Positions 3,273 through 34,121 of a DNA stretch of 40,430 bases are shown piece after piece. The translations under genes and the position numbers were made by a program. The stretch's first letter is position 1; each line of letters opens with the position of its first letter. Below the pieces are notes generated by a model. It had not been told where the DNA came from. It saw only the letters and a program-made list of their open reading frames with translations, and did no database searches. Location: sequence record PQ593108.1, one strand, 5' to 3'. The stretch comes from Escherichia phage MirsaeidiM_Esher7.

Positions 3273-3319
3273 TTAACCATAAAGGCCACTACATATAGTA
3301 ATGACCTTGAGTCTAACAC
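3273..3319 (-). promoter_or_regulatory. conserved imperfect hairpin, candidate RNase III processing site (R18.5 position)
   Basis: Element cataaaggccac...atgaccttgagtct immediately after the gene 18 stop; the minus-strand RNA folds into a stem of about 11 bp with G-U pairs; two more copies at 26811 and 34074. Confidence 0.4.
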
Positions 3320-3583
3320 TTATTGAACACCATACCCGGTGTCATTATCTTCCGTAGCCGAGAGCACCTTATCGTACTCTGCGTTCAGGGCCTCCATATC
3401 AGCCAGAGTCTTCTCGTCGACAGACACCTTGCTTAGCACGAAGTTGTGACGAGCCAGTAGCTTCTCAATGGCGTTGTAAAGCTGAGGTGAACGCTTAGTG
3501 TCATCCCGCAGGTCTTGCAGCATGAGTCGAGCACGTTCAGTATCTAGCATCAAGAGGAACTTCTCTAAGTCCATCTGCGTCAT
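3320..3583 (-). CDS. terminase small subunit (T7 gp18-like)
   Basis: 87 aa; ...FLLMLDTERARLMLQDLRDDTKRSPQLYNAIEKLLARH matches recalled T7 gp18; ATGA overlap with holin stop. Confidence 0.9.
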   Translation of the reverse strand: MTQMDLEKFLLMLDTERARLMLQDLRDDTKRSPQLYNAIEKLLARHNFVLSKVSVDEKTLADMEALNAEYDKVLSATEDNDTGYGVQ

Positions 3584-3777
3584 GTTTTACCACCTCCTCC
3601 TTTAATCGTTTTGTAGACTAGCACACCAATCTGGACAACGGTGTACGCGATAGCTGCAACGTAGAACCATTCGTTAAGTGTGAGCCCGAAGAAGAACCGA
3701 CTGGCACCATCAGCCGCAGCGGTCCCGACTATAGGAGAGGCTTTAAGGACCTCATTCTTGAAGTCTAACTCAATCAT
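3580..3777 (-). CDS. holin (T7 gp17.5-like)
   Basis: 65 aa with one hydrophobic TM segment and charged C-terminus; GGAGG RBS; located between tailspike and small terminase. Confidence 0.8.
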   Translation of the reverse strand: MIELDFKNEVLKASPIVGTAAADGASRFFFGLTLNEWFYVAAIAYTVVQIGVLVYKTIKGGGGKT

Positions 3778-3886
3778 AAAACCTCCAGTTTAAAGCGGGT
3801 CGTCCGTGACCCAAAGTTGTTACCCTACGTTGGTTAGCGTGTAGTTAGCCTCTACCCCACCAACTTAATGGCAAAGGGTTTGTTTA

Positions 3887-6800
3887 TTACTTCTGTTCAA
3901 GAGCAGAAAGTCTGGCTTCGATTCTTTCCAGTTTTCTTCTCTGATAAGCGGCTTCAGCAAAGAAAATTCCGTCAGGCCGAACACCCCACTCCTCACCCTC
4001 TTCGTGAATAACCACCTCGGTGTACACAGGTTCTTCAGTAGTAGTGACATTACCCTCCTCGTCAGTGTGTTCAATGATTTCATTGTGCGAAAATACCGTA
4101 TCGGTCATCCGTGGATACTTGTCATAGCACAGAACAGCATAACGACAATTCGTACTGTTTTCATCCATCAGACCATGTGCAATGAATACATCACGAATTT
4201 GCTGAGCAATAACCCCGAAGTGAATACGAGCATCATTGCCTTTCAGTTGAACAGCATCTAACCACTGGTACATGATGTAGTGAACGTCACCCCAAGCATC
4301 TAGGAAAGCATCATCAAAAACTACCGGCTCTGTTTTCCTCTCCCCGTTAGAAGTAACAATAGGGTTACTTCCAAGGTATGCAGTGGAGAAACGGTTGCGA
4401 GGCCCACCAAGCGCAGTGACGTTATCGTTATAAGGCTTAACATCAGCAGTCTGGAACAGATGCTCAGCTCCGTTGTAAACTATCCGCCTTGAGTCGGTGT
4501 TATTTGCACCATAAAGCGTAATCTGTGCGCCAGAAGAAGAACTGGTACTGTCGCCTCCGCAAAATATGGTGCGCTGCCCTGCAGGGTTATCAGTCGGTAT
4601 AGATTTCCCGATAAACCCATATTCACCTTCCATTAAAACTTCAGAGCGAATGTTACTACTGGTGCTGGCTCTAATGGTCACATGACCTAAACCCAAATCC
4701 CCTGTAAATTCCATTGGCGCAGGAACAGTGCGAATCCCATTCGTATCAAAAAACACGGGAACAGCTCTGTTAGGTACAGCACCATACCTGAAATCACGGG
4801 AAACATGATTGCTTGGGCCAATCTTCATTTTGTAGCAATACAAATCTGAGGGATGACCATCCGATTTGAATGGGTCCTTCGCTGAGTTATCTCCATATGT
4901 CCATGGGTTAAAATGGTCCTCTCCACCAAACATGTAGTAGATGTAATTATCCTTCACAACTACCGAACCAACACCTACACCTGAGTTAACTATTCCGCCC
5001 TGATAAATCTGGTCAGTGATGTTAACCCATTCAATATCATCTGCATTCCAATTGTTTACATTCAAGCGTGCATAGAAGGTGCGAGGATAAGATGCCTTGT
5101 AACGATCATCTGGTGCACCTGCTTCCCATTCATTTTCTGCACGTTCTGAACCAAACATAATAAGGTCATCCCCTACTTTAGCAAAAGGTAATGTAGTATG
5201 ATGAACATTATGTGGAAATCTCAGTGACTCCCAAGTCTGACCTATGTCTCTACTACGATGCAAAGAGCTACCTAGTCTATCCCCACGAGTACCACGAGTG
5301 ATAAGATACAATACACCATCATAGTACTTGATGCACGGTTCTGACGCATCTGGTTCATACTCAGCTGGTATCTGACGACGAACATAGTTAGCTGGATTGT
5401 CGAAAGCATTAGGGAAGTAGAAGAGTCCAACTTCGCGTGGAGCTACATCGCCTTGATGATAACCCATAACAAAGCCATTGTTATCAATAGTAGCAAAGCT
5501 ATGCACCTCTGTGACACGAGGGATTAGACCAAGGTCTGTCTTACGCCATGGAGACTTATGGAAAGAAGTACCCATGTGCCAATTCTTTCCAGCGTTATTC
5601 AAATCTGAAGTCTGCTGGTTGGATGTAAGAACCGTGAAGTTGTCCTTATCTATTATGGTTGCAACAGTCATATCACCGGATACACCTGTTACCGCAGAAT
5701 TAGAGAAGTTAACAAAATCACCCACGAATAGTCCGTGGTCTGGTACATGTATTGTTGCATATGGCTGATTTGCATCTTTAGTGATACCACCAGTAAGATG
5801 CAGGCTACGAGACATGGGGCGATCCCACAATGCACAATTGGTTAATTCGTTCTTGGCTAAAGTACGTGTTTCAATCATGGCAAACAGACGGTTGCGACAT
5901 ACGCCCATACTCATACAGTGATAGTTCACTGTAGGGTAATCTGGATGCAGATCAGTTAACCACTCTGGAGTAGACCATGTTTGACCATCATCACCAGACT
6001 TAACCCATGATACATGCAGACGACTAACACCATGACGATCGCTACCCATGTAAGGTGCATATATTACATTATCATATACGAACGCTTTATCCTGAGGCCA
6101 CGCATTGTAATAAGGGGTGTCCGTTATTTTGAACAACTCCCCCTGAACAAATTCCTCAGAGGCATAATAAAGAGGTTGTCCGGGAATGCGCTCATAAACG
6201 AAACGAGTGTTGATGAAGCGACTAATGTCAGGCAGGGATGTGACCTTATATGTCTTCCCATTGCCATTAATCTTTTGTCCAACCGGTATGTCGTTTAATG
6301 CGCTCGTTAACGCTGCTGTATCATCAGTGACACCATCCCCTTTAGCACCCCAACCACGAACATCATTTTCATCAAGCCAGCGTGCTCTATGTAATTCAGG
6401 GTAGAGTATTGCCCCTTCCGGGTTTGAAATCTGACTTCTTAAAGCAGCATCACCAACACTAACCCACGCACCTAATCCAATCCCACCAGAAGTTTCAGGA
6501 GTTGAACCAGCAGGAACGTTCTTTGGAAGCGTACCATCCCAGCGGTAATAATCACCATCCTCTTCCCATAGCAGGACCTCGCTCCATGTTGTAACGTTGT
6601 AGCCTTTCTCGAAGGAGCGACGGGTCATATAGCCAATTAGACCAGCTTCCCTGATACTCTCAGCGATTCGGCGTGCTTCGTCCTCGCTATCCTTAGCGTT
6701 GCCAGCAGAGCTACCAGCAGCATCGGCATATTCCTTCGCTAAGTCAACCGTTTGGTCTCGACCTTCTTCTGCAATATGGATAGCCTGAAGCTCTGAATTG

Positions 6801-7081
6801 GTCAGGTCACTAGCTGTCAACACTGAGCCATTCCTGAAGTCTACCACTAAGTCAGTTCCAGTCTGACGGTGAATACGAACGATGTCGAAACCTGATTGGT
6901 CAACCAACATCTCAATCATCGTTGGATTAAGGAATCGGTAATCTCGACCAACTTCCAGTACACGGTTCAGGGTAGGGTTAGAGCTATTCACCAGCGTAAC
7001 AACAACAAACGTTCTAGCTAGGTAATCGAACTCAATCCTGTACTGAGTGTTCCCTGAAGGGAATTGTGTAATCGTGGACAT
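3887..7081 (-). CDS. tailspike: endo-N-acetylneuraminidase (K1 capsule endosialidase, endoNF-like) with T7 gp17-like N-terminal adaptor and C-terminal intramolecular chaperone domain
   Basis: 1064 aa. N-terminus (IEFDYLARTFVVVTL) resembles the T7 gp17 tail-attachment domain; two Asp-boxes SGDDGQTW (aa 362-369) and SRDIGQTW (aa 610-617); E581, R596, R647 and S911 fall exactly where I recall the endoNF catalytic residues and the maturation cleavage site. Confidence 0.93.
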   Translation of the reverse strand: MSTITQFPSGNTQYRIEFDYLARTFVVVTLVNSSNPTLNRVLEVGRDYRFLNPTMIEMLVDQSGFDIVRIHRQTGTDLVVDFRNGSVLTASDLTNSELQAIHIAEEGRDQTVDLAKEYADAAGSSAGNAKDSEDEARRIAESIREAGLIGYMTRRSFEKGYNVTTWSEVLLWEEDGDYYRWDGTLPKNVPAGSTPETSGGIGLGAWVSVGDAALRSQISNPEGAILYPELHRARWLDENDVRGWGAKGDGVTDDTAALTSALNDIPVGQKINGNGKTYKVTSLPDISRFINTRFVYERIPGQPLYYASEEFVQGELFKITDTPYYNAWPQDKAFVYDNVIYAPYMGSDRHGVSRLHVSWVKSGDDGQTWSTPEWLTDLHPDYPTVNYHCMSMGVCRNRLFAMIETRTLAKNELTNCALWDRPMSRSLHLTGGITKDANQPYATIHVPDHGLFVGDFVNFSNSAVTGVSGDMTVATIIDKDNFTVLTSNQQTSDLNNAGKNWHMGTSFHKSPWRKTDLGLIPRVTEVHSFATIDNNGFVMGYHQGDVAPREVGLFYFPNAFDNPANYVRRQIPAEYEPDASEPCIKYYDGVLYLITRGTRGDRLGSSLHRSRDIGQTWESLRFPHNVHHTTLPFAKVGDDLIMFGSERAENEWEAGAPDDRYKASYPRTFYARLNVNNWNADDIEWVNITDQIYQGGIVNSGVGVGSVVVKDNYIYYMFGGEDHFNPWTYGDNSAKDPFKSDGHPSDLYCYKMKIGPSNHVSRDFRYGAVPNRAVPVFFDTNGIRTVPAPMEFTGDLGLGHVTIRASTSSNIRSEVLMEGEYGFIGKSIPTDNPAGQRTIFCGGDSTSSSSGAQITLYGANNTDSRRIVYNGAEHLFQTADVKPYNDNVTALGGPRNRFSTAYLGSNPIVTSNGERKTEPVVFDDAFLDAWGDVHYIMYQWLDAVQLKGNDARIHFGVIAQQIRDVFIAHGLMDENSTNCRYAVLCYDKYPRMTDTVFSHNEIIEHTDEEGNVTTTEEPVYTEVVIHEEGEEWGVRPDGIFFAEAAYQRRKLERIEARLSALEQK

Positions 7082-7128
7082 TATGCCTCCTGTTATGAAT
7101 TAAAAGGAGACCTATGGTAGCGCCTCCA

Positions 7129-7151
7129 GTTTCCTATAGTGATAGTTTAGT
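7129..7151 (-). promoter_or_regulatory. phage RNAP promoter (phi17-like)
   Basis: Plus-strand motif cctatagtgatagtttagtcc overlapping the end of gene 16, upstream of the tailspike gene. Confidence 0.75.
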
Positions 7152-10100
7152 CCTTGATGTGGATGCCCTGCTCCTCAAACGTTCCAAGCAACAGCTTCTG
7201 GGTAATGGGGTCGTTCGGAACCAGTTCACGGAACGTATTATACATCCCGGTCATGTAGTCACGCTCGTTGACACGAGTATCAGCCTTGAGGTAGCCAGCC
7301 AAGTTGTAAGCAGAAACGCCAACGTTAGCAGCATATCCGAAAGCTGGAACCTGCTCCAAGAAGTTACCAACAACATTCATCACAGGGTCACTTGTAGCCG
7401 CACCAAACGTGATGGCACGTTCAGGCTTCTCTGTAGGCGAACGAGGTAGGATAGACGAACGGAGCATCTTAGTGTCCTCATACCCAGCTATGCCACCTAG
7501 AATGTTAGCTACCCCAAGTGGTCCACCAAGGTGTGAACTACGGGACAGAGCCGCATATCCAATCATCGTCGGGTCCAGAGCTTGCTTGAGGTATTCACGG
7601 TCTCTGCCATCCTGCATAGCGTAAGCCTTTACGTGAGCCTGAGCCATGTAGTAGATACCAGATAGACCCATAGAGATCACAGTGGACAGGGCAGCGTCAA
7701 TCGCTCGGTTGTTCTTCGTGGCGTTATAGAAGGTACGCATGGTTCGCCCATTGATGGACTTGATGACGAAGTTCTTAAACTGAAGGACAGTCTTAGCGAT
7801 AGGACCATAAGCCTTTGCGTCCATGTTGGACAGCTTATGAGGACGTAGTAACGTTTCGTCAGCGATGGTGTCACCCATACGCCACAGGTCCATAGCCCTT
7901 GGGTCCTGACTGAACGCCTTCTTATCCTTGATGGTATACTTCCAGTCTGGACCACGAGTCACTGACTCACGGATGAGGGACTTAATGCCCTTCCACTGCT
8001 CGTCAGAGATACCAGCGGTCTTCAGCCATCGGTCATCGAACTTACGCTTACTACCAGTCAGGCTATGCTCCACGATGTCAGACAGGAAGCCTTGACGTCC
8101 AGCATCTAACAGGTAGTTGGTCGTACCGTTGAGGACTTTAGTGAACGGAGAGCGTACTGCAAGTTCGCCAGTGTAATACTTGGCAGTCCCCAGAGCTGTA
8201 GCTGTACCACGACCGAGGTCACTGTAAGATCGCAGACGGTCAATGACATCCTGTTTAGACGGACGGATTGAGTCATCCAGTTCCTTACCGAAGATAACAT
8301 TGTGCAGGTCCTTAATCTCTGAGGCCCCAACCTTCTTGTTACGGAAGGCTAGGTCACGGAAAATTGGGACTCCATGCAGCATTGCACGAACGTTGCCACG
8401 AGCCAGCATACCACCAATCTCCGTTAAGTTCTGAACACCCATGTAGGCATTCTTAGCGAAGAACGATAGGTCTGTCATTGTGCGCATCACGGTAGCGAAG
8501 GCTGCATCATCAGCACCATCACGTCGAGCACGACCAGTTAGAATCTTCAAGGTGTCACGTAAGGTAGATACTTCACCTTTCAACTTACCGTCATCCCCAG
8601 CCTTGTTCATCATGGTCTCAACCAAGTCCTTCATGTCCTTCGTGGTTTTGCCTGTACCAGCCATGATAGCAATATCGCCATTAATTCGACGGTTGTAGGC
8701 CGGGACAATCTTGTCCATGTCCCACTCACGCAGGTTGTTGACACTGAAGGTCTGACCATTAGGTAGGACGATTGACATATCGCTATCGAACAGGTTACGA
8801 GCCTCAAGGAAGCTGTTGTTCTCCAGACCCACCAGACCATTGATGTTCTCTTCCATTACGGATGAACGCTCGAACTGCTCGGTGTGAGAGATACCATAAG
8901 CCTTATCGTTGGCGTACTTATCGACCGCAGCCGCAAGTCCTTCTGGAGTCAACGTAGGATCAGCCTCTAAGAGTGCCTCGTCCACACGTTTCTTGACCTC
9001 AGGTCGAGACGCATAGCTGGTCAACCATGACTTCTTGATGGCCTCCTGTAGTGCCTCTGGACTCCCAAGCTCCTTGATGTACAGCTCCTTCATCTGGTTG
9101 CTATACACATGCGGGACGTAGGTTCCCTTGAAGCGGCTGCCCGGAAAGATAGACTGAGCGTCTGGACGACCAAACATCGCCGGGTTCTCCATCATCTCAC
9201 GCTTGGCGTCAAACTGGCTCTTCAGCAGGTCATAGACTTTCAGTTCTCCCGGAGTCAGTTCAGCCTTCAGGTTCCCACTTCCGTCTTCAATAGCCATAGA
9301 CACACGCTGGTAGATGTCCTGACGGAATGCGCCAGAGTCTCGCCAGAATGCTGTCTGGAAGTATGGGTCCTTGAGCGCCTCAGTAACCGCGTCGTCGATG
9401 TCGTTGTAGAACCGATGGTCCACAGCACGAAGTCTCTCGAATACGTCTGACGCAGTGGTCCCGATTTTACCTGAGGCCCCTGACTGCATACCAGTCGGTG
9501 AACGCACTAAGTCAGCAGCTACTCCACGAATCTCAGGGTTCTCAGACCGAAGCAGCTTCAGGCCAATCTCGGTAAGTCCACCAAGGTTCACACCAGCAGC
9601 GGCACGTTCTGGCTCAATCACTTCGTCAAAGACCTTACGTGTCTTAGGGTTCAGAGGGTTCTCACCAATCAGGATTGAACCATCTTCCAGTCGTACACTA
9701 CCCGGCTCATTCGGAACGTCAGCGAACTTAACTCCTTGATGACTAAAGGTCTGCTCACCTTCCTGAATAGGGAGACGAGACAGGTCCTGACCATCAATGT
9801 TACGAGCGGTCTCACGAGCTTCCAGACGTGTAGCTGGGCCAGCGAACTCATTAGTGTTGCGACCTAAGGCTCTGCCTAACCCATCAGCGATAGCAGTCAT
9901 ACCACCACCGAAGAGAGCACCACCAAGGATAGCTTCAGCCACATGAGTATCGCCACCAGCCACTGAGGTACGGGCCATCTCGGACACACCAGCAAGTGCT
10001 CCAGATTGAGCAGCCACGGTGAACATCTTGTTGACCAGCTTCGCACCTTTGCCAACCTGTCCAGCGATAGGAACGTAGGTCAGCGGGTCTACACCAGCAC

Positions 10101-11043
10101 CAATCACACCAGCTGCTAACTGAGCACCAGTCCCAGCCTTGGCCTTCTCTTGGTCCAACTTCTGGTTCTCAAGCGCCAAGTTAATAAGCTCGGTCAGGTT
10201 CTGAGGAGAGCCACCAGTAATGACACCGTAATACTGAGGGAGAACTCCAGCGTTACGAATCTGGTCCAGCTCCTCACGAGACCACTTATGGTTGTTCCAG
10301 CGGGTAGGGTTGAACACATCGCCAATGACATCAAGTGAGTCCTCGGTCTGACCAGCGCGGATAGCCACGCCGACCATAGAGTTCTTCACTTCAGCTTCTG
10401 TAGCCGAGCCGAAACCGAACCACGTAGAGCGGCCCTCTCGTTCCTGCATGGTCTCGCCAGTAGACTTATAGAACATCTCACCGAACGATTCGTTGGGAGC
10501 TTCAGGTGCTTGACCCTCAATGTTTAGACCAGCAGCGGTCGGAAGGTTCTCACCCAGAGCTACTTTAGGTTTAGCCTTGAGTCCTTCCGTGAGTGCGTCA
10601 AATACGTTAGCGCTTACTGGTGGAGTCTTTGGGGTTATGCCTCCCGCACCACTTAAGGCACGAGAGACGCCAGTCTTGTAGACCTCAGGGTCATACCGGG
10701 AACCAGTCTCGTGGTAGCCGATAGCCTCAGACAGAGAGGCTAGGACATCAGGGTTCGTCAAGTCGATACTTTGGGTCGCTGGAATGCCAGTAGCAGCCAC
10801 AACCGAGTCTATGTAAGACTGAGTGTCGTTCTCGCTGGGGGGCGCCCATCGGTTGATAATCTTCTCGATTGAGTCATAGCCTTGGCGACCGTAGCTTTGA
10901 AGGTTTTTCGCTAAGGCTCGGACCCCAGATTCAGGACTGTCGAAGATGACGAATTCACCATCGTCGCCTATAGCACCTTCCCACTGGTCTTTGGACTTAC
11001 GGAGGTTACCGGGGTTTGCGTTCCTTACACCACGTGTTGCCAT
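7147..11043 (-). CDS. internal virion protein D (T7 gp16-like) with N-terminal lytic transglycosylase domain
   Basis: 1298 aa; size and position match T7 gp16; N-terminal region is consistent with the gp16 transglycosylase domain. Confidence 0.9.
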   Translation of the reverse strand: MATRGVRNANPGNLRKSKDQWEGAIGDDGEFVIFDSPESGVRALAKNLQSYGRQGYDSIEKIINRWAPPSENDTQSYIDSVVAATGIPATQSIDLTNPDVLASLSEAIGYHETGSRYDPEVYKTGVSRALSGAGGITPKTPPVSANVFDALTEGLKAKPKVALGENLPTAAGLNIEGQAPEAPNESFGEMFYKSTGETMQEREGRSTWFGFGSATEAEVKNSMVGVAIRAGQTEDSLDVIGDVFNPTRWNNHKWSREELDQIRNAGVLPQYYGVITGGSPQNLTELINLALENQKLDQEKAKAGTGAQLAAGVIGAGVDPLTYVPIAGQVGKGAKLVNKMFTVAAQSGALAGVSEMARTSVAGGDTHVAEAILGGALFGGGMTAIADGLGRALGRNTNEFAGPATRLEARETARNIDGQDLSRLPIQEGEQTFSHQGVKFADVPNEPGSVRLEDGSILIGENPLNPKTRKVFDEVIEPERAAAGVNLGGLTEIGLKLLRSENPEIRGVAADLVRSPTGMQSGASGKIGTTASDVFERLRAVDHRFYNDIDDAVTEALKDPYFQTAFWRDSGAFRQDIYQRVSMAIEDGSGNLKAELTPGELKVYDLLKSQFDAKREMMENPAMFGRPDAQSIFPGSRFKGTYVPHVYSNQMKELYIKELGSPEALQEAIKKSWLTSYASRPEVKKRVDEALLEADPTLTPEGLAAAVDKYANDKAYGISHTEQFERSSVMEENINGLVGLENNSFLEARNLFDSDMSIVLPNGQTFSVNNLREWDMDKIVPAYNRRINGDIAIMAGTGKTTKDMKDLVETMMNKAGDDGKLKGEVSTLRDTLKILTGRARRDGADDAAFATVMRTMTDLSFFAKNAYMGVQNLTEIGGMLARGNVRAMLHGVPIFRDLAFRNKKVGASEIKDLHNVIFGKELDDSIRPSKQDVIDRLRSYSDLGRGTATALGTAKYYTGELAVRSPFTKVLNGTTNYLLDAGRQGFLSDIVEHSLTGSKRKFDDRWLKTAGISDEQWKGIKSLIRESVTRGPDWKYTIKDKKAFSQDPRAMDLWRMGDTIADETLLRPHKLSNMDAKAYGPIAKTVLQFKNFVIKSINGRTMRTFYNATKNNRAIDAALSTVISMGLSGIYYMAQAHVKAYAMQDGRDREYLKQALDPTMIGYAALSRSSHLGGPLGVANILGGIAGYEDTKMLRSSILPRSPTEKPERAITFGAATSDPVMNVVGNFLEQVPAFGYAANVGVSAYNLAGYLKADTRVNERDYMTGMYNTFRELVPNDPITQKLLLGTFEEQGIHIKD

Positions 11044-11048
11044 TATTA

Positions 11049-13331
11049 TTACTCCTTACTGATTAAGGTGTTTGCGATACCCTCCAGTGAGACGTCATTG
11101 TACATCCCACCGCGCTTCTCGATGTTGGCCTCTCGGTCAGCTCGACGTTTGTCACCAGCAGCTTTAGTCCCGACGATACGCGCTCGCTTGTTAGCGTCAC
11201 GTTCTGCCTGAGCATATGCGGCATCTTGTGCCTTCTGCTGTTGTTCGCGGTAGAGTTTACCTACAAGTTCTTTATCGTAGCGAATACGAATAGTCCCTGT
11301 AGCGTCTTGGAGGAAGATAGAGCCGTTCTGTTCAACAACGGACAACTGAGAGTTAACTACCCAAGGGTTGGCCTTAATGAGCTGCTTACGAGCGGTGTCT
11401 ATAATGTCTCGACCAACCTGCCACGACTCTGGGTTATCCCCGACCATAAGCTGGTGCTTGGACGCCATGCCGATGGACTTACCGTCAGAACCTTCAGACT
11501 GGAACGTTACGGTGTTCTCATTCAGCCAGCGTTGAGTCTGCTGAGTTGCAGCGTCAGCGTTACCTGTACGATAGTACCATGAGTCCCAGACCTTACGAGC
11601 ACTTGAGTCTAGAGACGTAGGAAGACGCGAAAGGTCCTTATTCCGAGAGTCGTTCTTCAACTCCTGCCACGCCCTGTCTGACTCCATGCGCATCTCACGG
11701 CTTTGACTTGCAGCTTGCTTATCAGCTTCAATCATCGTCTGAGGGTCCAGACCCATCTTATCCATCTGGTCGAACGTAGAGAACAACTGAGCTTGATCAG
11801 GATACAGAGCAGCGAAACTTGAAGGGTCCTGAGTGTAGGCACGACGAAGAGATTCGAAGCGTTGCATCTTGTCTGGGTCGTACTGCCCACGGATGACCGC
11901 AGCTTGCCACTCACCAGCAGCGTCCTGAGTAAGCGTTTGGAAGGCATTACGGAACGGACCGTTGTTAGTGTCAGCTCTTAATAATGCAACCTTCTGTGCG
12001 TCCTTAGCAGCCTCAGGGATGTCCATCTGGTCAATCTGCTGTAGCTTAGCAGACGCATAGTTGTTCATGTCTGAACGCTTGAACTCTCCTGTGGATACAG
12101 AGACCGGAAGGTCCTCATAGTTGGTGGACACGTTGTCTCCAGCCAGACGTCGCTGATACACTTGGTCAATGACCAGTTGCTTGTTCTGGGTCTGGATTAA
12201 CTTCGTGTTCTCCTTCGCCTGTTCAGCAGACTTACGCTTTACCGCTTCCAGTAAGCTGGCTTCGGCATTAATAAGCATCTGACGCTGAGGCGTGAGTTCT
12301 TCACCCGGTTGAAGCAGGTTGTTCTGCTCCTTGAGTTTTTGAATCTGGGCCAGACCGATGGTTGGGTCATCCTGAAGAATCGCAGACTGAACGCCTAACG
12401 ACAAGTCTTCCTGATACTTAGCCACCAGCTTGTACTCAGTTCCTTGTGCCTCAACAATAGCAGCGTTGAAGACATCAGGTCCTACAATCTCTTCGACTGT
12501 AGCATCCACGCCGTTAAGGGTGATTCGCTCGCCTCGTACTTGCTGTAGGAAGTTTGAGCCGCCTGACTTCTGGATTGCGTCACGGACCGTCTGGGTAACG
12601 ACCTCCCGCGCTCGCTGGTCCGAGGGGATAGCAGCAGTAGTCAGTCCATCACGAAGGTAAGCCATGAATGTCTTGCCAGACTCAGGTGAACGCATCAGGT
12701 CGCCATCGTTCAGGAATGAGTTCATCTCAATACGAGTGTTCAACATTGCTGTCTCTTCAGACTGCTTGCTGAAATACTTATTGAAAGACCCATAGATAGC
12801 GATGTTGCGGTCTGTGATGTTATCGTTGAACCCACGCTGGAAGAACTCGTCTGTAGGGTTAATACCCGCCTCTTCAGCATAGGACTTAGCGGCGTCCTGA
12901 AGTCGCTGGTGGCGATACTCTTCCATGTCCTGACGTGTACGGAACTCACCGTTCTGAATCTTAACGTTAATCTCGTCGTCTACAGCAAAGGCAGCATTAC
13001 GACCAGTCTTGACTCGAAGTGCTTCCATAGCGTAAGGGTCGTCCTGATACAGCAGTGTGCCGTTCTGGATAGCCTCACGTCTTTGTTGAGGTGTCAGCTT
13101 ACGGATAATCTCGTTAGACCGCTCGTCGGCCCGTGTCTTCTCCTCGTCCTTGAACTGCTTGTACAATCCAGTCCCAGACTCAACGAAGTTGGTTAACGCC
13201 CGAGCCAGACCTGAGTCACCAGTTGGAGCCTGAACGCTGGCTGCTTGATAGTTGACGGCGATAGTTTTACCCGGCGCTCTGCCACGACCCATAGTCCGAT
13301 TAGCCAGAGCTGATTCAATATTACTAGCCAT
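11049..13331 (-). CDS. internal virion protein C (T7 gp15-like)
   Basis: 760 aa; size and position (T7 gp15 is about 747 aa). Confidence 0.85.
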   Translation of the reverse strand: MASNIESALANRTMGRGRAPGKTIAVNYQAASVQAPTGDSGLARALTNFVESGTGLYKQFKDEEKTRADERSNEIIRKLTPQQRREAIQNGTLLYQDDPYAMEALRVKTGRNAAFAVDDEINVKIQNGEFRTRQDMEEYRHQRLQDAAKSYAEEAGINPTDEFFQRGFNDNITDRNIAIYGSFNKYFSKQSEETAMLNTRIEMNSFLNDGDLMRSPESGKTFMAYLRDGLTTAAIPSDQRAREVVTQTVRDAIQKSGGSNFLQQVRGERITLNGVDATVEEIVGPDVFNAAIVEAQGTEYKLVAKYQEDLSLGVQSAILQDDPTIGLAQIQKLKEQNNLLQPGEELTPQRQMLINAEASLLEAVKRKSAEQAKENTKLIQTQNKQLVIDQVYQRRLAGDNVSTNYEDLPVSVSTGEFKRSDMNNYASAKLQQIDQMDIPEAAKDAQKVALLRADTNNGPFRNAFQTLTQDAAGEWQAAVIRGQYDPDKMQRFESLRRAYTQDPSSFAALYPDQAQLFSTFDQMDKMGLDPQTMIEADKQAASQSREMRMESDRAWQELKNDSRNKDLSRLPTSLDSSARKVWDSWYYRTGNADAATQQTQRWLNENTVTFQSEGSDGKSIGMASKHQLMVGDNPESWQVGRDIIDTARKQLIKANPWVVNSQLSVVEQNGSIFLQDATGTIRIRYDKELVGKLYREQQQKAQDAAYAQAERDANKRARIVGTKAAGDKRRADREANIEKRGGMYNDVSLEGIANTLISKE

Positions 13332-13342
13332 TAGTCCTCCTC

Positions 13343-13909: not shown

Positions 13910-14007
13910 GCCGATAGAAATTGGTTCGCAAATTTTCTAATCCCCCTTCCGGCTATCAGCCAGATACTTAGCAGCCTTCTCAATCTTGCAGACTGTGCAG
14001 ACCTTCG

Positions 14008-14466: not shown

Positions 14467-14495
14467 AAAGTCTCCTTATAACCTTAAGGGCCTAT

Positions 14496-14518: not shown

Positions 14519-14542
14519 TAAATCTATAGGCCCTTCAATAAG

Positions 14543-18799: not shown

Positions 18800-18901
18800 A
18801 TGATAATTCTCCTATTCAATTGAAAGATAAAGTTTATTACTTACTGTATGCCCAATCCGTATGGACTGAAGTAATAGGGAAACCTTGAGTCTGTCTCTTG
18901 G

Positions 18902-18924
18902 TCTCCCTATAGTGATAGTTTAGT
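18902..18924 (-). promoter_or_regulatory. phage RNAP promoter (phi10-like)
   Basis: Plus-strand motif ccctatagtgatagtttagtcc immediately upstream of the capsid gene. Confidence 0.8.
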
Positions 18925-24458: not shown

Positions 24459-24619
24459 TAGTCTTTCTCCTCTTCGGCATCAGGTGTAAGAAGCTCACGG
24501 ATGTCAGAAGCACAAGACCCTGACAAGTTCGGGCAATAGCGAGAGGTCTCGTGACCACTCCACCAAGCACTTCTCATAAGGTCTATGACCTCCTGTCTTG
24601 TAAAGGTCTGCTTCTTCAT
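24458..24619 (-). CDS. small hypothetical protein (53 aa) in the gp5.3 slot
   Basis: ATG at 24619 overlaps the DNAP stop (TGATG), GGAAGGAG RBS upstream, stop overlaps the gp5.5 start (TAATG). Product MKKQTFTRQEVIDLMRSAWWSGHETSRYCPNLSGSCASDIRELLTPDAEEEKD. Below the 60-aa cut-off of the supplied ORF track. Confidence 0.45.
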   Translation of the reverse strand: MKKQTFTRQEVIDLMRSAWWSGHETSRYCPNLSGSCASDIRELLTPDAEEEKD

Positions 24620-26790: not shown

Positions 26791-26810
26791 GGTTAATCCT
26801 CCGCTTTAGT

Positions 26811-26855
26811 CTAATCATAAAGGCCACTCGCTATGAATGACCTTGAGTCTAGACC
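26811..26855 (-). promoter_or_regulatory. conserved imperfect hairpin, candidate RNase III site (R4.7 position, upstream of DNAP)
   Basis: Second copy of the cataaaggccac...atgaccttgagtct element, with compensatory changes preserving the stem. Confidence 0.4.
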
Positions 26856-27019
26856 TAGAAGTCTGTACGCAAGAAGTGATACATAAACTTCCGGTTAGCT
26901 TTCTTCCATGCCTTAGAGTTGAACCGCTGGTCTCCCAGAATGTTCGACAGGCAGGTTGCTTCATCGCTCCACCATTTGTACATGAACCGATGGTAGCGAG
27001 CTTTAAGTTTCTTTAACAC
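26855..27019 (-). CDS. small hypothetical protein (54 aa, GTG start) between primase-helicase and DNAP
   Basis: GTG at 27019 preceded by GGAGG at 7-nt spacing; basic product (V)LKKLKARYHRFMYKWWSDEATCLSNILGDQRFNSKAWKKANRKFMYHFLRTDF. Position corresponds to the T7 4.x genes. Low confidence. Confidence 0.35.
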   Translation of the reverse strand: MLKKLKARYHRFMYKWWSDEATCLSNILGDQRFNSKAWKKANRKFMYHFLRTDF

Positions 27020-27061
27020 TAACGGTCCTCCGTAAAATTCTTATAGTCAGCGATGTCCCGA

Positions 27062-28768
<1,707 letters not shown>

Positions 28769-28815
28769 TCACTCCTTAATCACAAATGCTAACAAAGGGA
28801 CAGGACTAATGGTCC

Positions 28816-28838
28816 CATCCCTAAGGTGATAGTTTAGG
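28816..28838 (-). promoter_or_regulatory. phage RNAP promoter variant upstream of primase-helicase
   Basis: Plus-strand motif ccctaaggtgatagtttaggc (TAAGG instead of TATAG in the core); the predicted transcript starts GGGAUGGGAC-CAUUA-GUCCUGUCCC, a 10-bp 5'-terminal hairpin. Confidence 0.6.
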
Positions 28839-29049
28839 CTTTGAAGAACTGAGCCAATTGGTCAGCTTTGGTATCAGCCTGACGAGCCTTCATGCCAGCT
28901 TCCAGTGACGCGATGGTCAGCTTGTCAGCCAGAGCAGCAGCATCAGCCGCACCGTCCGCAGTCTTCTTTTCTACCTTTCGTTCCAGTACCGCAGCACGAC
29001 GATAACCACGCACCACCATACGACCAAGAAATTCGATAAGTTTAATCAT
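28834..29049 (-). CDS. hypothetical protein (3.8 slot)
   Basis: 71 aa, Ala/Lys-rich; ATG with AAGGGAGAA RBS. Confidence 0.55.
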   Translation of the reverse strand: MIKLIEFLGRMVVRGYRRAAVLERKVEKKTADGAADAAALADKLTIASLEAGMKARQADTKADQLAQFFKA

Positions 29050-29073
29050 TGGGTTGTTCTCCCTTAGAGTTTA

Positions 29074-29532
29074 TTAACCACGGTCGGAAGTGACCAGTTC
29101 ATTGGTAGACAGCCAGCGTTGCAAGTCAAAACTTGGACACGCCTTAGGTGCTATGTCATGGTGTGCTTTGATTTCTGCCTGAGGATACAGGACCTTCAGT
29201 TCATCAAGCTTGTTGCGCAGGGAGTTCATCTGGGCTGGAGTGAAGTTAGCTTCAAACTGACCCTTAGCGTCAATTCCACCTACAAGGCAGACGCCTACGG
29301 ACTTGGAGTTCCAGCCCTTAACGTGTGACCCTACGACGTTTACCGGTCGTCCCTCTTCCACAGTACCATCGCGCTTGATGATAAAGTGGTAGCCTACGTC
29401 CAGCCAGCCTTGCTGCTTGTGCCACATACGGATGGTCTCTACCCCGATGTCCATCTCTGGCTTGGTAGCCGAACAGTGAACGAAGATAGCGTCAGTCCTG
29501 GACCGTGGGTTGAACTGTACCTTACTTACCAT
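29074..29532 (-). CDS. N-acetylmuramoyl-L-alanine amidase / T7 lysozyme (gp3.5-like)
   Basis: 152 aa; near-collinear with recalled T7 lysozyme (TDAIFVHCSATKP, WLDVGYHFIIKRDGTVE, GVCLVGGID, APKACPSFDL, NELVTSDRG). Confidence 0.95.
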   Translation of the reverse strand: MVSKVQFNPRSRTDAIFVHCSATKPEMDIGVETIRMWHKQQGWLDVGYHFIIKRDGTVEEGRPVNVVGSHVKGWNSKSVGVCLVGGIDAKGQFEANFTPAQMNSLRNKLDELKVLYPQAEIKAHHDIAPKACPSFDLQRWLSTNELVTSDRG

Positions 29533-29977
29533 TGTACACCACCAATTCTACGACCACTAGATTCAGGTGCTGGGTGAAGCGTTGTGCGTCAGTGGTGTGC
29601 ATCTGTAGACGCTTATGGTTGAAGACGTGTGAGTTGCTAATCTTCACGTAAACTTCTTCAGGCTTTCCATGGACGATGAACGTCTGGCCTACACCAATCT
29701 TGTCGATGGTCAGGACTTCACGCTTCACAGTCACAGGTGGTACGCTCGAAGCTGGCAGGGCCTGAGGCTGTTCAACAACTTCTACACTGTAGTTCTCGTG
29801 ACCATTCCAGCTGGTAGTCTCACCAATGTAATCCTCAGGATGCCACCCCTTCTCAACAATTACGCTATGGTCTTCTCGCTTTTCGAAAACAGCATCAGTG
29901 AATTGAGGGTTATTCATCAGGGTGTTCTTTGAGAATCTGTAACGTGTTCCAACTTCAAGGTCTTTACAGGTAATCAT
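29522..29977 (-). CDS. hypothetical protein inserted between endonuclease I and lysozyme genes
   Basis: 151 aa; ATG at 29977 overlaps the gene 3 stop (TGATG) with an AAGGAG RBS; T7 has no gene in this position as far as I recall; no motif recognised. Confidence 0.6.
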   Translation of the reverse strand: MITCKDLEVGTRYRFSKNTLMNNPQFTDAVFEKREDHSVIVEKGWHPEDYIGETTSWNGHENYSVEVVEQPQALPASSVPPVTVKREVLTIDKIGVGQTFIVHGKPEEVYVKISNSHVFNHKRLQMHTTDAQRFTQHLNLVVVELVVYNGK

Positions 29978-30429
29978 CACTTAACTCCTTTCTTCTTGGG
30001 GATGAGGATACCTGAGGGCAGACGTACAGTCTCCTCTCGCAGCCACTCAACCGGGATAAACTTGTCGGCATACTTAAAGCCGTTCTTTTCGCACCATGCG
30101 CCATACGTGGTCGGAGATCCTTTGTATAGCTTGGAGCGGGAACTTGAGAACACGAACCGGATGTCTAACTCTGGGTGCTGTTCTCGTACCAGAAGGTGCT
30201 TCTTACGGTCATCACTATCGAAGATACCTTTGGTCTCCACGATAATACCGTTAGGAAGGATAAAATCTGGTGTGTACTTGTGGTCGGAAGCCGGAATCAC
30301 ATAGTTGATATAATGGCTTTCGTACTCCGCTTTGACGCCGTTCTGTTCCAGCCACTGCTGGTTCTTGGCTTCAAGTCCAGAGCGGTAGGCACCCACAGAG
30401 TGCCCCCGTTTTGGTGTCCATGCAGCCAC
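29977..30429 (-). CDS. endonuclease I, Holliday junction resolvase (T7 gp3-like)
   Basis: 150 aa; matches recalled T7 gp3 (FRSGLE, YVIPAS.H.YTPDF.LPNGI.VETKG, DDRKKHLL.REQHPELDIR.VFSSSR.KLYKGSPT). The apparent start codon is GTG at 30429. Confidence 0.9.
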   Translation of the reverse strand: MAAWTPKRGHSVGAYRSGLEAKNQQWLEQNGVKAEYESHYINYVIPASDHKYTPDFILPNGIIVETKGIFDSDDRKKHLLVREQHPELDIRFVFSSSRSKLYKGSPTTYGAWCEKNGFKYADKFIPVEWLREETVRLPSGILIPKKKGVK

Positions 30430-30431
30430 GA

Positions 30432-31130
30432 TTAGAAGTCGTAGTCGCCACCGGACGCAGAGTCATCACCACCATCGGAACCATCTTCACCGAAGTCGTC
30501 AGACCCGAAGTCACCGTCAGTAGACGCTTTGTAGCCAGTACCGAGGTCTTCATCATCACCCCAGCCACCATCGCCACCCGCACCATCACCTTTCCACTCC
30601 TTCAGTTCTACCAGAAGGCAGGACTCAAGCTGGAGCTTAACGCTTGCACCAGTCGCAGCGTTCCACTTGAACGGCAGGACTTTAAACTTGACCTTCAGCT
30701 TAGACCCAGCGCCAATATTCGGGACGTCACGGATGAGTTTAGCATCGGTGTCGTAGAACCGTAATACGATAGGCTCGGACTTGCCGTCTTTAAGGTAAGA
30801 CGCAAAGCATTTAAACTTAAGGGTAACAGTACCGTCACCATTCTCAATCCACGGCATGTCGCCTTCACGCGGCTCGATAGGCTTCTTGCCACGCTGAACC
30901 TGAGGTGGGTTCTTCTCGTGGTCTGCGAGTGCTTTCGCATACGCATCGTCGTGAATCTTCTGTAAGACATCAATCATCTTACGGACCTTCGGGTTGCTCA
31001 GGTCGAATGTCAGGTTAACCTTATGCTCACCACGCTCGTTAAACTTGGTGTCTGCTTTGTTCAGCCATGCGTAAGGCTCAACGATACCAGCTACCGGAGT
31101 GGTGAAAGTCTTCAGTTGCTCTTTAGCCAT
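30432..31130 (-). CDS. single-stranded DNA-binding protein (T7 gp2.5-like)
   Basis: 232 aa (same length as T7 gp2.5) with acidic C-terminal tail ending DYDF. Confidence 0.93.
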   Translation of the reverse strand: MAKEQLKTFTTPVAGIVEPYAWLNKADTKFNERGEHKVNLTFDLSNPKVRKMIDVLQKIHDDAYAKALADHEKNPPQVQRGKKPIEPREGDMPWIENGDGTVTLKFKCFASYLKDGKSEPIVLRFYDTDAKLIRDVPNIGAGSKLKVKFKVLPFKWNAATGASVKLQLESCLLVELKEWKGDGAGGDGGWGDDEDLGTGYKASTDGDFGSDDFGEDGSDGGDDSASGGDYDF

Positions 31131-31170
31131 TGGTGTAAATCTCCTAATTTAAAAGTTACGAACTGGACGT

Positions 31171-31193
31171 CTGTCCTACAGTGATAGTTTAGG
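31171..31193 (-). promoter_or_regulatory. phage RNAP promoter variant (phi2.5-like)
   Basis: Plus-strand motif cctacagtgatagtttaggtc upstream of the SSB gene, overlapping the end of gene 2. Confidence 0.6.
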
Positions 31194-31347
31194 TCTCAGG
31201 ACGAATCCGTCCGACCACAAAACCAGCGTCCTCATACTCTTGGGACTTCAGGGTAGCCTCTTCAAGAGACTTTGCGTACAACGGAACCTCGAAGGACTGA
31301 ACGCGTCCCTCAAGCTCCACGATGTACTTCTTTTCTACGTCAGTCAT
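31189..31347 (-). CDS. host RNA polymerase inhibitor (T7 gp2-like), 52 aa
   Basis: ATG with GGAG RBS; product [52 protein letters not shown] resembles recalled T7 Gp2 (SFEVPIYAETLDEA...GFEVTRVRP). Below the ORF-track size cut-off. Confidence 0.7.
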
Positions 31348-31434
31348 AGACCACGCTCCTTCCATTGGTTGTATAACGTAATGTAGTCTGTGTTGAGAGT
31401 CTTCTCATACATCTCCCGGCACCACTCACTTGGT

Positions 31435-31662
31435 TTAAGCATATCGGTTCACCATTACACAGTCGTCAGAATGGTCATACTCCTCTACCCTAATAATCAT
31501 ACTAGGAGTCTTCATATAAGCAAACGGTAGGAGGTCATAGTCACAATACTCACTGTGTCCTAATGAGAACGCTAACATACCCTTACGTAGCGCCTTGTAT
31601 GCTCGGTAAAAACTGAGCGCTCTACGCTTCACCCCTACAGCTTTAAGTTCTTCACGCGTCAT
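31435..31662 (-). CDS. hypothetical protein (1.8 slot)
   Basis: 75 aa, ATG with AAAGG RBS, overlaps the gp1.7 stop by 11 nt. Confidence 0.5.
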   Translation of the reverse strand: MTREELKAVGVKRRALSFYRAYKALRKGMLAFSLGHSEYCDYDLLPFAYMKTPSMIIRVEEYDHSDDCVMVNRYA

Positions 31663-32191
31663 AACACTTACCTTTATGTAGGTCGAACAGCTCCTGATAG
31701 AAGGCTGCTTTGTTCAGGTCCTTCTCCATAGTCGCCAGCTCTGACTTCTTACCAGCCCGGAGTCGATACTTCAGGACGTTACCCATGCAGAAACCACGGA
31801 ACTCGCTGACAGTCAGGGACCGAGCGATAATCTCAATGGACTCCACACCGTCAAAGACCTGATAGTGGGACGGCTTGCGTACGTCGTCGATAGCCTTAGC
31901 GTAAGGCTGGTCGTCTGTAGTAGTTACCTCTGGTTTCTCCAGTTTAGGCTTACGTATGTCCATCGCTCGGATTTCACCTAAGGTTATCTTTTTATTGATA
32001 TTTACAGGGCAGAGGTAGCAAGGGACATTATGGCAGAAAATACCGCAGCCATTCAAATCATCTGGGCGACCTTCGTTATTATCTACCAACTTAATGATAA
32101 TCTCTTGTTCAAGTGCGTTCATACTGTTAGCTCCTTTATTACAGGTGTGTGGATAACGGTCATCCTTCTCTAAGCAAGCTATACACCCCAT
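31652..32191 (-). CDS. gp1.7-like nucleotide kinase
   Basis: 179 aa; strong match to recalled T7 gp1.7 (GCIACLEKDDRYPHTCNKGAN, IIKL.DNNEGRPDDLNGCGI, GNVLKYRLRAGKKSELA). Confidence 0.85.
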   Translation of the reverse strand: MGCIACLEKDDRYPHTCNKGANSMNALEQEIIIKLVDNNEGRPDDLNGCGIFCHNVPCYLCPVNINKKITLGEIRAMDIRKPKLEKPEVTTTDDQPYAKAIDDVRKPSHYQVFDGVESIEIIARSLTVSEFRGFCMGNVLKYRLRAGKKSELATMEKDLNKAAFYQELFDLHKGKCYDA

Positions 32192-32445
32192 CAGAACACC
32201 TCCTTCACTACCTCAACGAACAGACGAACGCGAGGCCACCTAGTGTAGACCACAGGTACGTTGGACTCACGCTTCTGGAGAGCCTCTTCAGCTTTGCTCG
32301 GAGTAATCAGAGCGTAGACTGTAGGTGATAACTTAACAGCCTTCCCGAAGTAGCCCAGCTTCTCGTTGCGCTTAATGCAAGCGAACGGGTTGTGAGACAG
32401 GTGGAAGGTATTGGAATAACGGTTGAACATTAAGTTCTTAGACAT
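32191..32445 (-). CDS. gp1.6-position hypothetical protein
   Basis: 84 aa; ATG with TAAGGAG RBS; immediately downstream of a phage promoter. Confidence 0.55.
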   Translation of the reverse strand: MSKNLMFNRYSNTFHLSHNPFACIKRNEKLGYFGKAVKLSPTVYALITPSKAEEALQKRESNVPVVYTRWPRVRLFVEVVKEVF

Positions 32446-32470
32446 AGAGTCTCCTTAGGTTGTTGATGGT

Positions 32471-32493
32471 TGTCCTATAGTGATAGCTTAGTG
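32471..32493 (-). promoter_or_regulatory. phage RNAP promoter (phi1.5/1.6-like)
   Basis: Plus-strand motif cctatagtgatagcttagtg. Confidence 0.7.
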
Positions 32494-32511
32494 TCCAGCT
32501 GGTGGCCCAGA

Positions 32512-32545
32512 CGCAAAGAACCCAGCAGTCATAAGACCACTGGGT
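32512..32545 (-). terminator. TE-like intrinsic terminator after the ligase gene
   Basis: Minus-strand RNA CCCAGUGGUC-UUAU-GACUGCUGGG (10-bp stem) followed by UUCUUUG; position directly after ligase matches the T7 early terminator. Confidence 0.6.
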
Positions 32546-32555
32546 TGACGTTTAG

Positions 32556-33596
32556 TTAGCTCTTAATGGTAGGGTTATCTTCCGTCCCGCGCCACTGGTC
32601 AAACGAGGGGTGTCGCAATGAGCCATCTGGTGTCTCCTCCATGTAGGTAATCTGGCAAGCCCACCCCTTGTAGTAGTCAGGGTCTGACTTAACGTTCTCC
32701 GTGAACTCGGACATAAGGGCGCGACTAATGTTAGTTGCGGAGACCTCCATCCCGTTCTCGAGCATAACGTCGAAGCCGATGACCAGACCTTCGTTGGCTA
32801 GACCTTCAGTTCCCCATACCGGACGAACAACATGGCCGTCTGCCTCTTCGCTTGGTTTCATCTTGAACATACCTGACTTCTTGCCACGCTTCCAGCGTCC
32901 CAGTGGGTCTTTAACCACCAGACCCTCATGGCCCTCTTCTCTCTTCTTCTCATACAAGTCAGTAAGCTCGTCTAAGCTAAACACTGTATGACTCTCAGAT
33001 AGCACCCAGTCGATTTCCGGGAAGTATTTCTGGAGGAGAGGGACGATAGCTTCGGCCTTCAGGCGTGTGACGCTATGGATAGGACCTTCAGCTTTCGGGT
33101 CGAGGATGACGTTAAGGTCCACGATACCGTAGACGACTACCTTGATGTGCTTCTTGTCAAGACAGAACGGTAGATTCTCTTTCTTCCAGTTCTTACCCCA
33201 GTGCTCACCAGTTGAAAACTCAAAGTTCTTTTGCTTTACCCACTTCGTTCGGATAAGACCTGAAGATGTGTTGAAGTCTACACCTTTTACCATCACCTCA
33301 CCATCAATCATCAGGCCTGTCCCTTCGTAGCCGGATTGCTTCAGGAACCATCGCCAGTCGCTTGCCTTGGTCGCCCCAATGTCCTCACCGGATGTGTTCA
33401 TCCAGCTAAGGGAAGGAAGTGGTTTAGACTCACGGCTCAACCATTGGGTCTCGCCTGATGGGAAGACTGGAAGGTTCAACCGGACACCATCGTACTTCAC
33501 TTCAGCTTCCAGAGACCCGGCTGCTTCCAGTGCCTTCTTAATGCCATACTCAGAGTAATCTACAGCGCGGTGCGGGTTGGTTTTAATAGTTGTCAT
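32556..33596 (-). CDS. ATP-dependent DNA ligase (T7 gp1.3-like)
   Basis: Adenylation motif KYDGVR; start placed at the ATG at 33596 (MTTIKTNP..., GGAG RBS, TAATG overlap with the gene 1.2 stop) rather than the upstream ATG at 33611. Confidence 0.9.
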   Translation of the reverse strand: MTTIKTNPHRAVDYSEYGIKKALEAAGSLEAEVKYDGVRLNLPVFPSGETQWLSRESKPLPSLSWMNTSGEDIGATKASDWRWFLKQSGYEGTGLMIDGEVMVKGVDFNTSSGLIRTKWVKQKNFEFSTGEHWGKNWKKENLPFCLDKKHIKVVVYGIVDLNVILDPKAEGPIHSVTRLKAEAIVPLLQKYFPEIDWVLSESHTVFSLDELTDLYEKKREEGHEGLVVKDPLGRWKRGKKSGMFKMKPSEEADGHVVRPVWGTEGLANEGLVIGFDVMLENGMEVSATNISRALMSEFTENVKSDPDYYKGWACQITYMEETPDGSLRHPSFDQWRGTEDNPTIKS

Positions 33597-33859
33597 TATG
33601 CTTTGCTCCATGTGTCGAGATGGTCAGCGAGACCGTTGAGGTAGTCTGTTGCAGTATTATACAGCACGTCTTCATCGTAGTGTGCGAAGGTCTCAAGCGC
33701 GAAGATGTTACCAGCTCGGTCCTAAACCCTGAGTTTCATGCACTCTTGGCGTGACGTATAGTCTTGAAACTCTTGAGATATGACAGCGAAGTCTAACTGG
33801 TAGAGCCTGTTACACGCTGCCCTGAAAGCGTTGAGGTTGCCACTATAGAGTTGGCCCAT
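33596..33859 (-). pseudogene. gene 1.2 homolog (dGTPase inhibitor) interrupted by an in-frame amber codon
   Basis: The reading frame MGQLYSGNLNAFRAACNRLYQLDFAVISQEFQDYTSRQECMKLRV-TAG-DRAGNIFALETFAHYDEDVLYNTATDYLNGLADHLDTWSKA aligns with recalled T7 gp1.2 across its length, but codon 46 is TAG (plus 33722-33724). Confidence 0.6.
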
Positions 33860-33863
33860 TTGG

Positions 33864-34043
33864 TTATGCTCCTACGAAGTATTTCTCTTGGTTGATCATA
33901 GAGTCTTTACCTTCAGCATTACGGAAAGCGCCTTTGACACCACCGCCACGTTTAGTCTTGTTCAGCTTGCGGCCCTTAGGAATGTAACCTTCAGTCTGCT
34001 GACGTTCACGGATGCGCTCGAAGTTGATAGTGTTCTGATACAT
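33864..34043 (-). CDS. gp1.1-like small basic protein (59 aa)
   Basis: ATG with GGAG RBS; contains KGRKLNKTKR, shared with recalled T7 gp1.1. Below the ORF-track size cut-off. Confidence 0.7.
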   Translation of the reverse strand: MYQNTINFERIRERQQTEGYIPKGRKLNKTKRGGGVKGAFRNAEGKDSMINQEKYFVGA

Positions 34044-34073
34044 TGTTGTAGCTCCAGTTGTTTAGGTTATAGG

Positions 34074-34121
34074 GTTAATCATGAAGGCCACGACTTTGAG
34101 TCATGACCTTTAGTCTAATCC
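34074..34121 (-). promoter_or_regulatory. conserved imperfect hairpin, candidate RNase III site (R1.1 position)
   Basis: Third copy of the hairpin element, between the phi1.1-like promoter and gene 1.1. Confidence 0.4.

Follow-up and report, generated by a model that had tools for sequence, protein, structure and literature searches.

Probable RNase III processing signals of the T7 type in Escherichia phage MirsaeidiM_Esher7: three intergenic hairpins within a family of six

The RNase III sites of bacteriophage T7, and the cuts made at them, were reportedly described by Dunn and Studier in 1983, and they are the closest described counterparts of three hairpins found in a 40,430-nucleotide (nt) stretch of Escherichia phage MirsaeidiM_Esher7 (PQ593108.1), the whole of which is called here the window. 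The polycistronic transcripts of T7 are processed at such sites (PMC6938266). The internal loops of these structures limit cleavage to one phosphodiester, and the resulting 3' hairpin guards the messenger against 3'-to-5' exonucleases; significant reactivity needs a minimum of about 11 base pairs (bp) between the cut and the loop, and the sequence of the tetraloop sets neither the cleavage site nor the reactivity (PMC1540722).

The three hairpins of the window, numbered as sites 1, 2 and 3, can be regarded with high confidence, from their sequence and predicted structure, as host RNase III mRNA-processing signals orthologous to R18.5, R4.7 and R1.1 of T7 and T3, respectively, as a first-pass annotation made from the letters alone had proposed. 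The family has six members in this genome, these three included. The basis computed here is the homology of sequence and structure to established sites, together with the architecture of the elements, their synteny, their strand specificity and the covariation among relatives; cleavage itself, the exact positions of the cuts and any consequences for how stable the mRNAs are and how they are translated are inferred by analogy with these sites.

A 2-kb segment of the window matches Kayfunavirus genomes (Vec13, PhiNW-B1, LM33_P1) in reverse orientation with an identity of at most 98.4%, and the window is a K1F-like genome of the T7 group, K1F being the type species of Kayfunavirus. All large open reading frames (ORFs) are carried by the minus strand, and the K1F-type phage promoter AACTATCACTATAGG has 11 matches with two mismatches or fewer, all on the minus strand, where 0.23 are expected; a twelfth match, with three mismatches, lies within a gene on the same strand. 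Since ORFs and promoters are all on the minus strand, this is the transcribed sense, and the elements are therefore to be read as minus-strand RNA.

The core shared by the three elements, AAGGCCAC-N(4-16)-TGACCTT, is present exactly three times in the window (3282-3308, 26820-26844 and 34084-34110), with an expected number of 0.00 and no occurrence in 100 shuffles. Copies 1 and 2 have in common the longer flanks cataaaggccac ... atgaccttgagtct, which are exact, and the flanks of copy 3, catGaaggccac and cctttagtct, are different at two bases. In the minus-strand RNA the upper stems are formed by AAGGUCAUUAC/GUAGUGGCCUU in site 1, AAGGUCAUUC/GAGUGGCCUU in site 2 and AAGGUCAUGAC(U)/(A)GUCGUGGCCUU in site 3, with lengths of 11, 10 and 11-12 bp, respectively, and each of them includes two U-G pairs at positions 5 and 8. 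The pairs proximal to the loop are compensatory between copies (UUAC/GUAG, UUC/GAG, GAC/GUC). In minimum free energy folds a 7-bp lower stem is found in all three elements, set off from the upper stem by an asymmetric internal loop with 4 nt on the 5' side (ACUC or ACUA) and 5 nt on the 3' side (UAUGA or UAUGG). The folding energies of the minus-strand RNA are -22.0, -19.1 and -17.7 kcal/mol for sites 1, 2 and 3, and those of the plus strand are -10.6, -10.0 and -15.7 kcal/mol, the 3-4 G-U pairs of each element becoming A-C mismatches on the latter. The claims of the first-pass annotation on this point, namely three shared elements, a stem of about 10-11 bp with G-U pairs on the transcribed strand and compensatory differences next to the loop, are thus borne out by the folds, which also show the stable and conserved structure that it had suggested looking for.

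The relationship to T7 was evaluated by a covariance model built from seven T7 sites alone (R0.3, R0.5, R1, R1.1, R1.3, R4.7 and R18.5; NC_001604), the coordinates and cuts of which are those reportedly given by Dunn and Studier 1983. These cuts agree with the sequences: in six of the seven sites they fall on CCUUUAU^G or a similar sequence, 3 nt beyond the end of the upper stem; R1.3 is without an internal loop, and AAGGTC...GGCCTT is present in four of the seven. When every position of the window was scored, the T7-only model gave six matches, all on the minus strand, the next best reaching 15 bits and the plus-strand images of the hairpins 9-13 bits. Sites 1, 2 and 3 obtain 53.3, 52.8 and 42.0 bits, respectively. 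The model was validated on T3, whose record NC_003298 labels stem-loops as 'RNase III recognition site', the T7 records NC_001604 and V01146 carrying no RNase III features; it recovered 8 of the 10 T3 sites with no other match at an expect value (E) below 0.1, and in K1F (NC_007456) it found the same six sites as in the window. Counterparts of T7 R3.8, R6.5 and R13 were not found in the window by the covariance model, the one method applied.

Site 1 (3267-3319, minus strand; upper stem 3282-3308; E 2e-15; fold of about -22 to -23 kcal/mol) is an R18.5-type signal placed between the homologue of gene 18 (3320-3583, 87 amino acids (aa)) and the homologue of gene 18.5 (2769-3218), and it starts one base past the stop codon of the former. 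Its sequence is that of K1F 36449-36501, between K1F genes 18 and 18.5, and the internal-loop strand UAUGG is common to site 1 and to the R18.5 sites of T7 and T3, the other sites having UAUGA. The predicted cut, CCUUUAU^GG, would fall between 3279 and 3278 on the minus strand.

Site 2 (26805-26855, minus strand; upper stem 26820-26844; E 3e-15) is an R4.7-type signal located 15 nt upstream of the start of gene 5, the DNA polymerase gene (26790), and R4.7 of T3 (12970-13018) is likewise found directly before gene 5 (13043). The cut would be expected at CCUUUAU^GA, between 26817 and 26816. Several K1F-like records annotate a 'hypothetical protein' across the hairpin upstream of gene 5 (e.g., NC_048023.1 13367-13427); at the same place in the window there are only short ORFs of 49-59 aa that overlap the structured RNA, and these calls are probably over-calls.

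Site 3 (34069-34121, minus strand; upper stem 34084-34110; E 2e-11; fold z-score -5.9) is an R1.1-type signal found downstream of gene 1 (34443-37124) and of a 71-aa ORF, and upstream of the gene 1.1 homologue (33864-34043), a 59-aa ORF that matches T7 gp1.1. The site begins at the +1 of a K1F-type phage RNA polymerase promoter (34120-34135, minus strand; AAACTATCACTATAGG), which is among the 11 consensus matches and whose initiating GG constitutes the first two bases of the lower stem; the same layout is seen in T7 phi1.1A/R1.1 and in T3 phi1.1/R1.1, where phi1.1 extends over 5984-6006 and R1.1 over 6003-6053. The cut is predicted at CCUUCAU^GA, between 34081 and 34080. At 34108-34111 the RNA of site 3 reads CUAAAGG, and CUCAAGG is present in every relative examined and in the T7/T3 consensus, the A being private to this genome and falling in a conserved internal-loop strand.

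The family is completed by three minus-strand signals of the RNase III type in the early region. The first (39385-39442; 31.3 bits, E 1e-7; fold -25.6 kcal/mol, z -4.3), probably 'E1', lies upstream of the first early ORF (39122-39376) and is identical at K1F 710-767; the second (39068-39119; 41.3 bits, E 4e-11; fold -23.8 kcal/mol, z -4.5), probably 'E2', lies upstream of a gene 0.3-like ORF of 174 aa (38515-39039) and its K1F counterpart is at 1033-1084, before gene 0.3; the third (38319-38369; 28.1 bits, E 2e-6; fold -18.3 kcal/mol, z -2.9) precedes a small early ORF and corresponds to K1F 1769-1820. The first two have a common 3' flank, CCUGACUGAUAGUCACUAA, and a 5' CUACAGG in place of CUCAAGG, and are closer to R1 of T7 and T3 (ACAGGUC...GGCCUGAAUAGG) than to R1.1; relatives have between one and three copies of this kind. 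All six sites are intergenic, and their positions match those of K1F, T3 and T7. The correspondence with T7 R18.5, R4.7 and R1.1 that the first-pass annotation had proposed therefore holds both in synteny (between genes 18 and 18.5, before gene 5, between genes 1 and 1.1) and in the comparison with T7 and T3 sites, and its 'E1/E2' are not separate elements, being early-region members of the same family.

The same annotation had pointed to a recurrence of the heptamer gagtcta in the E1/E2 loops. GAGTCTA is present 16 times in the window in comparison to 7.7 +/- 2.5 expected, a value that one of 100 shuffles reaches and that weakly supports the recurrence; in RNA, sites 1 and 2 have UAGACUC as their conserved 5' flank, and it is also found in T7 R0.5. 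The heptamer does occupy both early apical loops, in opposite orientations, as GAGUCUA in the first hairpin (39415-39421) and as its exact complement UAGACUC in the second (39094-39100), about 320 nt apart, and the copy in the second loop is not conserved. A kissing interaction between the two hairpins was considered and rejected because the second loop varies in relatives (UAGACUG, UAGAAUC, UAACUAAU, UAACUCAU) without a matching change in the first; the complementarity of the loops is regarded, on these sequences, as incidental.

In the early region (37200-39450) there is no ORF of the size of the T7 gene 0.7 protein kinase, the largest being of 174 aa, and no gene 0.7 is annotated in K1F (NC_007456, 1-2566). 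The T7 gene 0.7 kinase is described as stimulating RNase III (PMC4858673); given the lack of a gene 0.7-type ORF, this stimulation probably does not apply here.

Conservation was analyzed in IMG/VR loci of three kinds, those surrounding gene 18, those at the end of gene 1 and those at the gene 5 start. These loci were searched with the model, and together with T7, T3, K1F and the window they gave 83 matches, 56 of which are distinct. In the covariation alignment of the distinct sequences, which was fitted to the model structure and in which paralogues are mixed with orthologues, pairing holds in 94.6% of the cells and changes on both sides occur in 13 of 17 pairs, values reached by none of 500 shuffles; slid-register controls are paired at 23-51%. 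Single-sequence folds obtained without alignment point in the same direction: among orthologues of the gene 5 site an A-U pair is replaced by G-C in two loci (L084 and L078), at the gene 18.5 site a C-G pair is replaced by U-A in L025, and in L016 the upper stem is lengthened to 14 bp. By blastn, a 61-nt element is found in 402 phage records from Escherichia, Salmonella, Vibrio, Klebsiella, Yersinia and other hosts, and the matches include T7 R0.5. In distant relatives, whose gp18 is 52-55% identical, the motif is absent downstream of gene 18, so that the family is restricted to T7/T3/K1F-like phages of enterobacteria and, by blastn, a few others. Two matching records of about 40 kb are labeled with Gram-positive hosts, MT350292.1 (Enterococcus phage EFA-1) and OR786095.1 (Staphylococcus phage MBBL139); they carry this Kayfunavirus-type element with identities of 96.7% and 91.7%, respectively, and their sequences suggest a wrong host assignment or contamination.

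On these bases a mechanism can be proposed in which the transcribed minus strand would fold into two coaxial helices, a lower one of 7 bp and an upper one of 10-12 bp, with the asymmetric internal loop (ACUC on the 5' side, UAUGA on the 3' side) between them. E. coli RNase III would bind this coaxial helix of about 20 bp, corresponding roughly to two turns, and, restricted by the internal loop, would cut once only, at CCUUUAU^G on the 3' side of that loop. The upstream mRNA would be left with a stable 3' hairpin able to block 3'-to-5' exonucleases, and the downstream mRNA would gain a new 5'-monophosphate end about 25-60 nt before the next start codon; in transcripts begun at promoter 34120-34135 the site would stand at the extreme 5' end.

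Some points weigh against this reading and should be considered together. The covariation alignment was fitted to the structure and mixes paralogues, and therefore its counts lean towards structure. The T7 cleavage coordinates by which the predicted cuts are placed are those reportedly given by Dunn and Studier 1983. An Rfam scan of the whole window gave no family at or above the gathering threshold and Rfam appears to be without a model for T7-type RNase III sites, so that there is no curated threshold for these elements, and nothing relevant was found in the literature on RNase III in K1F or Kayfunavirus. Site 3, in addition to CUAAAGG, has G-C for U-A at one position of the 'distal box', where UA/UG is optimal (PMC1540722), and its reactivity could therefore be lower. 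The boxes were defined on an engineered minimal substrate, and the natural hairpins can be compared with them only tentatively: sites 1 and 2 have the upper-stem pairs of T7 R1.1 up to the loop-adjacent U-G/U-A, and at the position where site 3 has G-C the natural T7 R4.7 has C-G.

A separate point concerns the core ACUCAAGGUC...GUGGCCUUUAUGAU, which is nearly invariant between paralogous sites and between genera whose intergenic DNA is otherwise unalignable, a conservation that seems to be above what the loose double-strand specificity of RNase III demands. It is possible, at a rather low probability, that the excess reflects a second constraint, either a role of the palindrome at the DNA level or concerted evolution by gene conversion among copies. 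The DNA-level roles could include an origin function near phi1.1, recombination 'linkers' for the exchange of modules and the cost of sensing by Lamassu/DdmABC-type systems.

Among the alternatives to processing, the one that survives best is that the hairpins act without being cut, as passive mRNA stabilisers opposing exonucleases, as binding sites of RNase III or as translational regulators. Each hairpin is stable by itself, and variants that bind the enzyme and resist cleavage do exist, including those with a bulge-helix-bulge or with GC at position 4 of the proximal box (PMC1540722); the deviations of site 3 in the distal box and at CUAAAGG make this explanation conceivable mainly for that site. 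However, site 2 equals the efficiently cleaved T7 R1.1 in the upper stem and in the internal loop, the loop-adjacent U-G/U-A pairs are kept in sites 1 and 2, and the conserved sequence of the lower stem and internal loop is unnecessary for a simple 3' barrier, so that a function without processing is considered improbable.

Even less probable is a function of the palindromes as DNA, in the form of a cruciform or single-strand hairpin operating in a replication origin, in phage recombination or in recognition by a host system. T7 R1.1 is found within sequence derived from the T7 primary origin, site 3 adjoins a phage promoter, an arrangement also present in the T7 origin region, and in Vibrio cholerae DdmABC (Lamassu) is triggered by T7-type RNase III palindromes whichever way they are oriented (PMC11707656). 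Against this, the structure is strand-specific: on the opposite strand G-U pairs become A-C, the folding energy is about halved for sites 1 and 2 and the covariance score falls from 53 to 12 bits, and the covariation keeps pairs of the RNA type, including G-U. A DNA cruciform as the primary role was rejected on this asymmetry of model score and folding energy, and a DNA role of the palindromes would be secondary at most.

The least credible proposal, that these G+C-rich intergenic hairpins of the transcribed strand, followed by UUUAU, are terminators or pause sites for the host or phage RNA polymerase, was rejected in its intrinsic terminator form since there is no T-run past the stem, the first two U residues are paired within it, a consensus scan calls none of the three terminator-like, the essential genes 5, 18.5 and 19 lie downstream with no promoter between, and the homologous elements of T7 and T3 are annotated as RNase III sites, TE and Tphi being separate features.

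Other structured or repeated sequences were observed on the minus strand of the window. The promoter at 37198-37213, just 5' of gene 1, starts a leader (37150-37213; GGACUCAAGGUCU...) in which the 5' half of the RNase III core is present with no matching GGCCUU 3' half; its fold is weak (z -1.2), it is not matched by the T7-only covariance model, and it is possibly an R1-type site that has degenerated. The transcript from the promoter that precedes the capsid gene begins with a hairpin (18877-18907; GGGAGACC...GGUUUCCC), whose loop and 3' arm contain AGACUCAAGG and which resembles the T7 phi10 leader and an R3.8-type stem-loop; it is given no score by the RNase III covariance model. Short direct repeats (cctacacctacagtctcactaa and cctacagtc variants) are located at 39830-39960, near the left end of the genome and 5' of the early region; arrays of this kind are typical of the left ends of T7-like genomes, a type that these repeats fit.

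Read as RNase III processing signals, the elements are unannotated but expected orthologues of the classic sites of the T7 group, and their value is chiefly one of annotation, as K1F-like records, including those of therapeutic candidates against E. coli K1, list no RNase III sites. With respect to the first-pass annotation, the three early-region sites, the lower stems, the predicted cuts and the promoter overlap are additions. Knowledge of the six sites and of the predicted cuts delimits the mature mRNAs at both the 5' and the 3' end, which is of use in the engineering of these phages, and the elements are reusable as insulators or stabilisers. No new biological question is opened; the one connection that reaches further is with a Lamassu defence system, which T7-type RNase III palindromes can trigger.

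In comparison with the known systems, the T7 sites have in common with the three elements the architecture of two helices and an internal loop, R0.5, R1.1, R4.7 and R18.5 folding alike, as well as the core ACUCAAGGUC...GUGGCCUU(U/C)AUGAU and the intergenic positions at genes 1/1.1, 4/5 and 18/18.5 on the transcribed strand; in contrast, the apical loops, the loop-proximal pairs and the sequences of the lower stems are different. In particular, site 2 (GACUCAAGGUCAUUC-AUAGC-GAGUGGCCUUUAUGAUUAG) is identical to T7 R1.1 (AACUCAAGGUCAUUC-GCAA-GAGUGGCCUUUAUGAUUGA), the most thoroughly studied substrate, in the upper stem and in both strands of the internal loop (ACUCAAGGUCAUUC, GAGUGGCCUUUAUGAUU), and differs from it in the apical loop and lower stem. 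Unlike T7, this phage has six canonical sites and is without gene 4.7, for which reason the pre-gene-5 site stands directly before gene 5. T3, which belongs to another genus (Teetrevirus), has a different promoter specificity and ten annotated sites, shows the same arrangement as the window, with R4.7 just before gene 5, R1.1 over the +1 of phi1.1 and R18.5 between genes 18 and 18.5, and in phiYeO3-12 (Berlinvirus), also of another genus and promoter specificity, the matching place is annotated as 'putative RNase III site R0.45'. The K1F record (NC_007456) lists coding sequences only and leaves the sites unannotated, as do the records of close relatives; in K1F every base of the R18.5-type site and of the first early site agrees with the window, and the other four sites differ at one or two bases.

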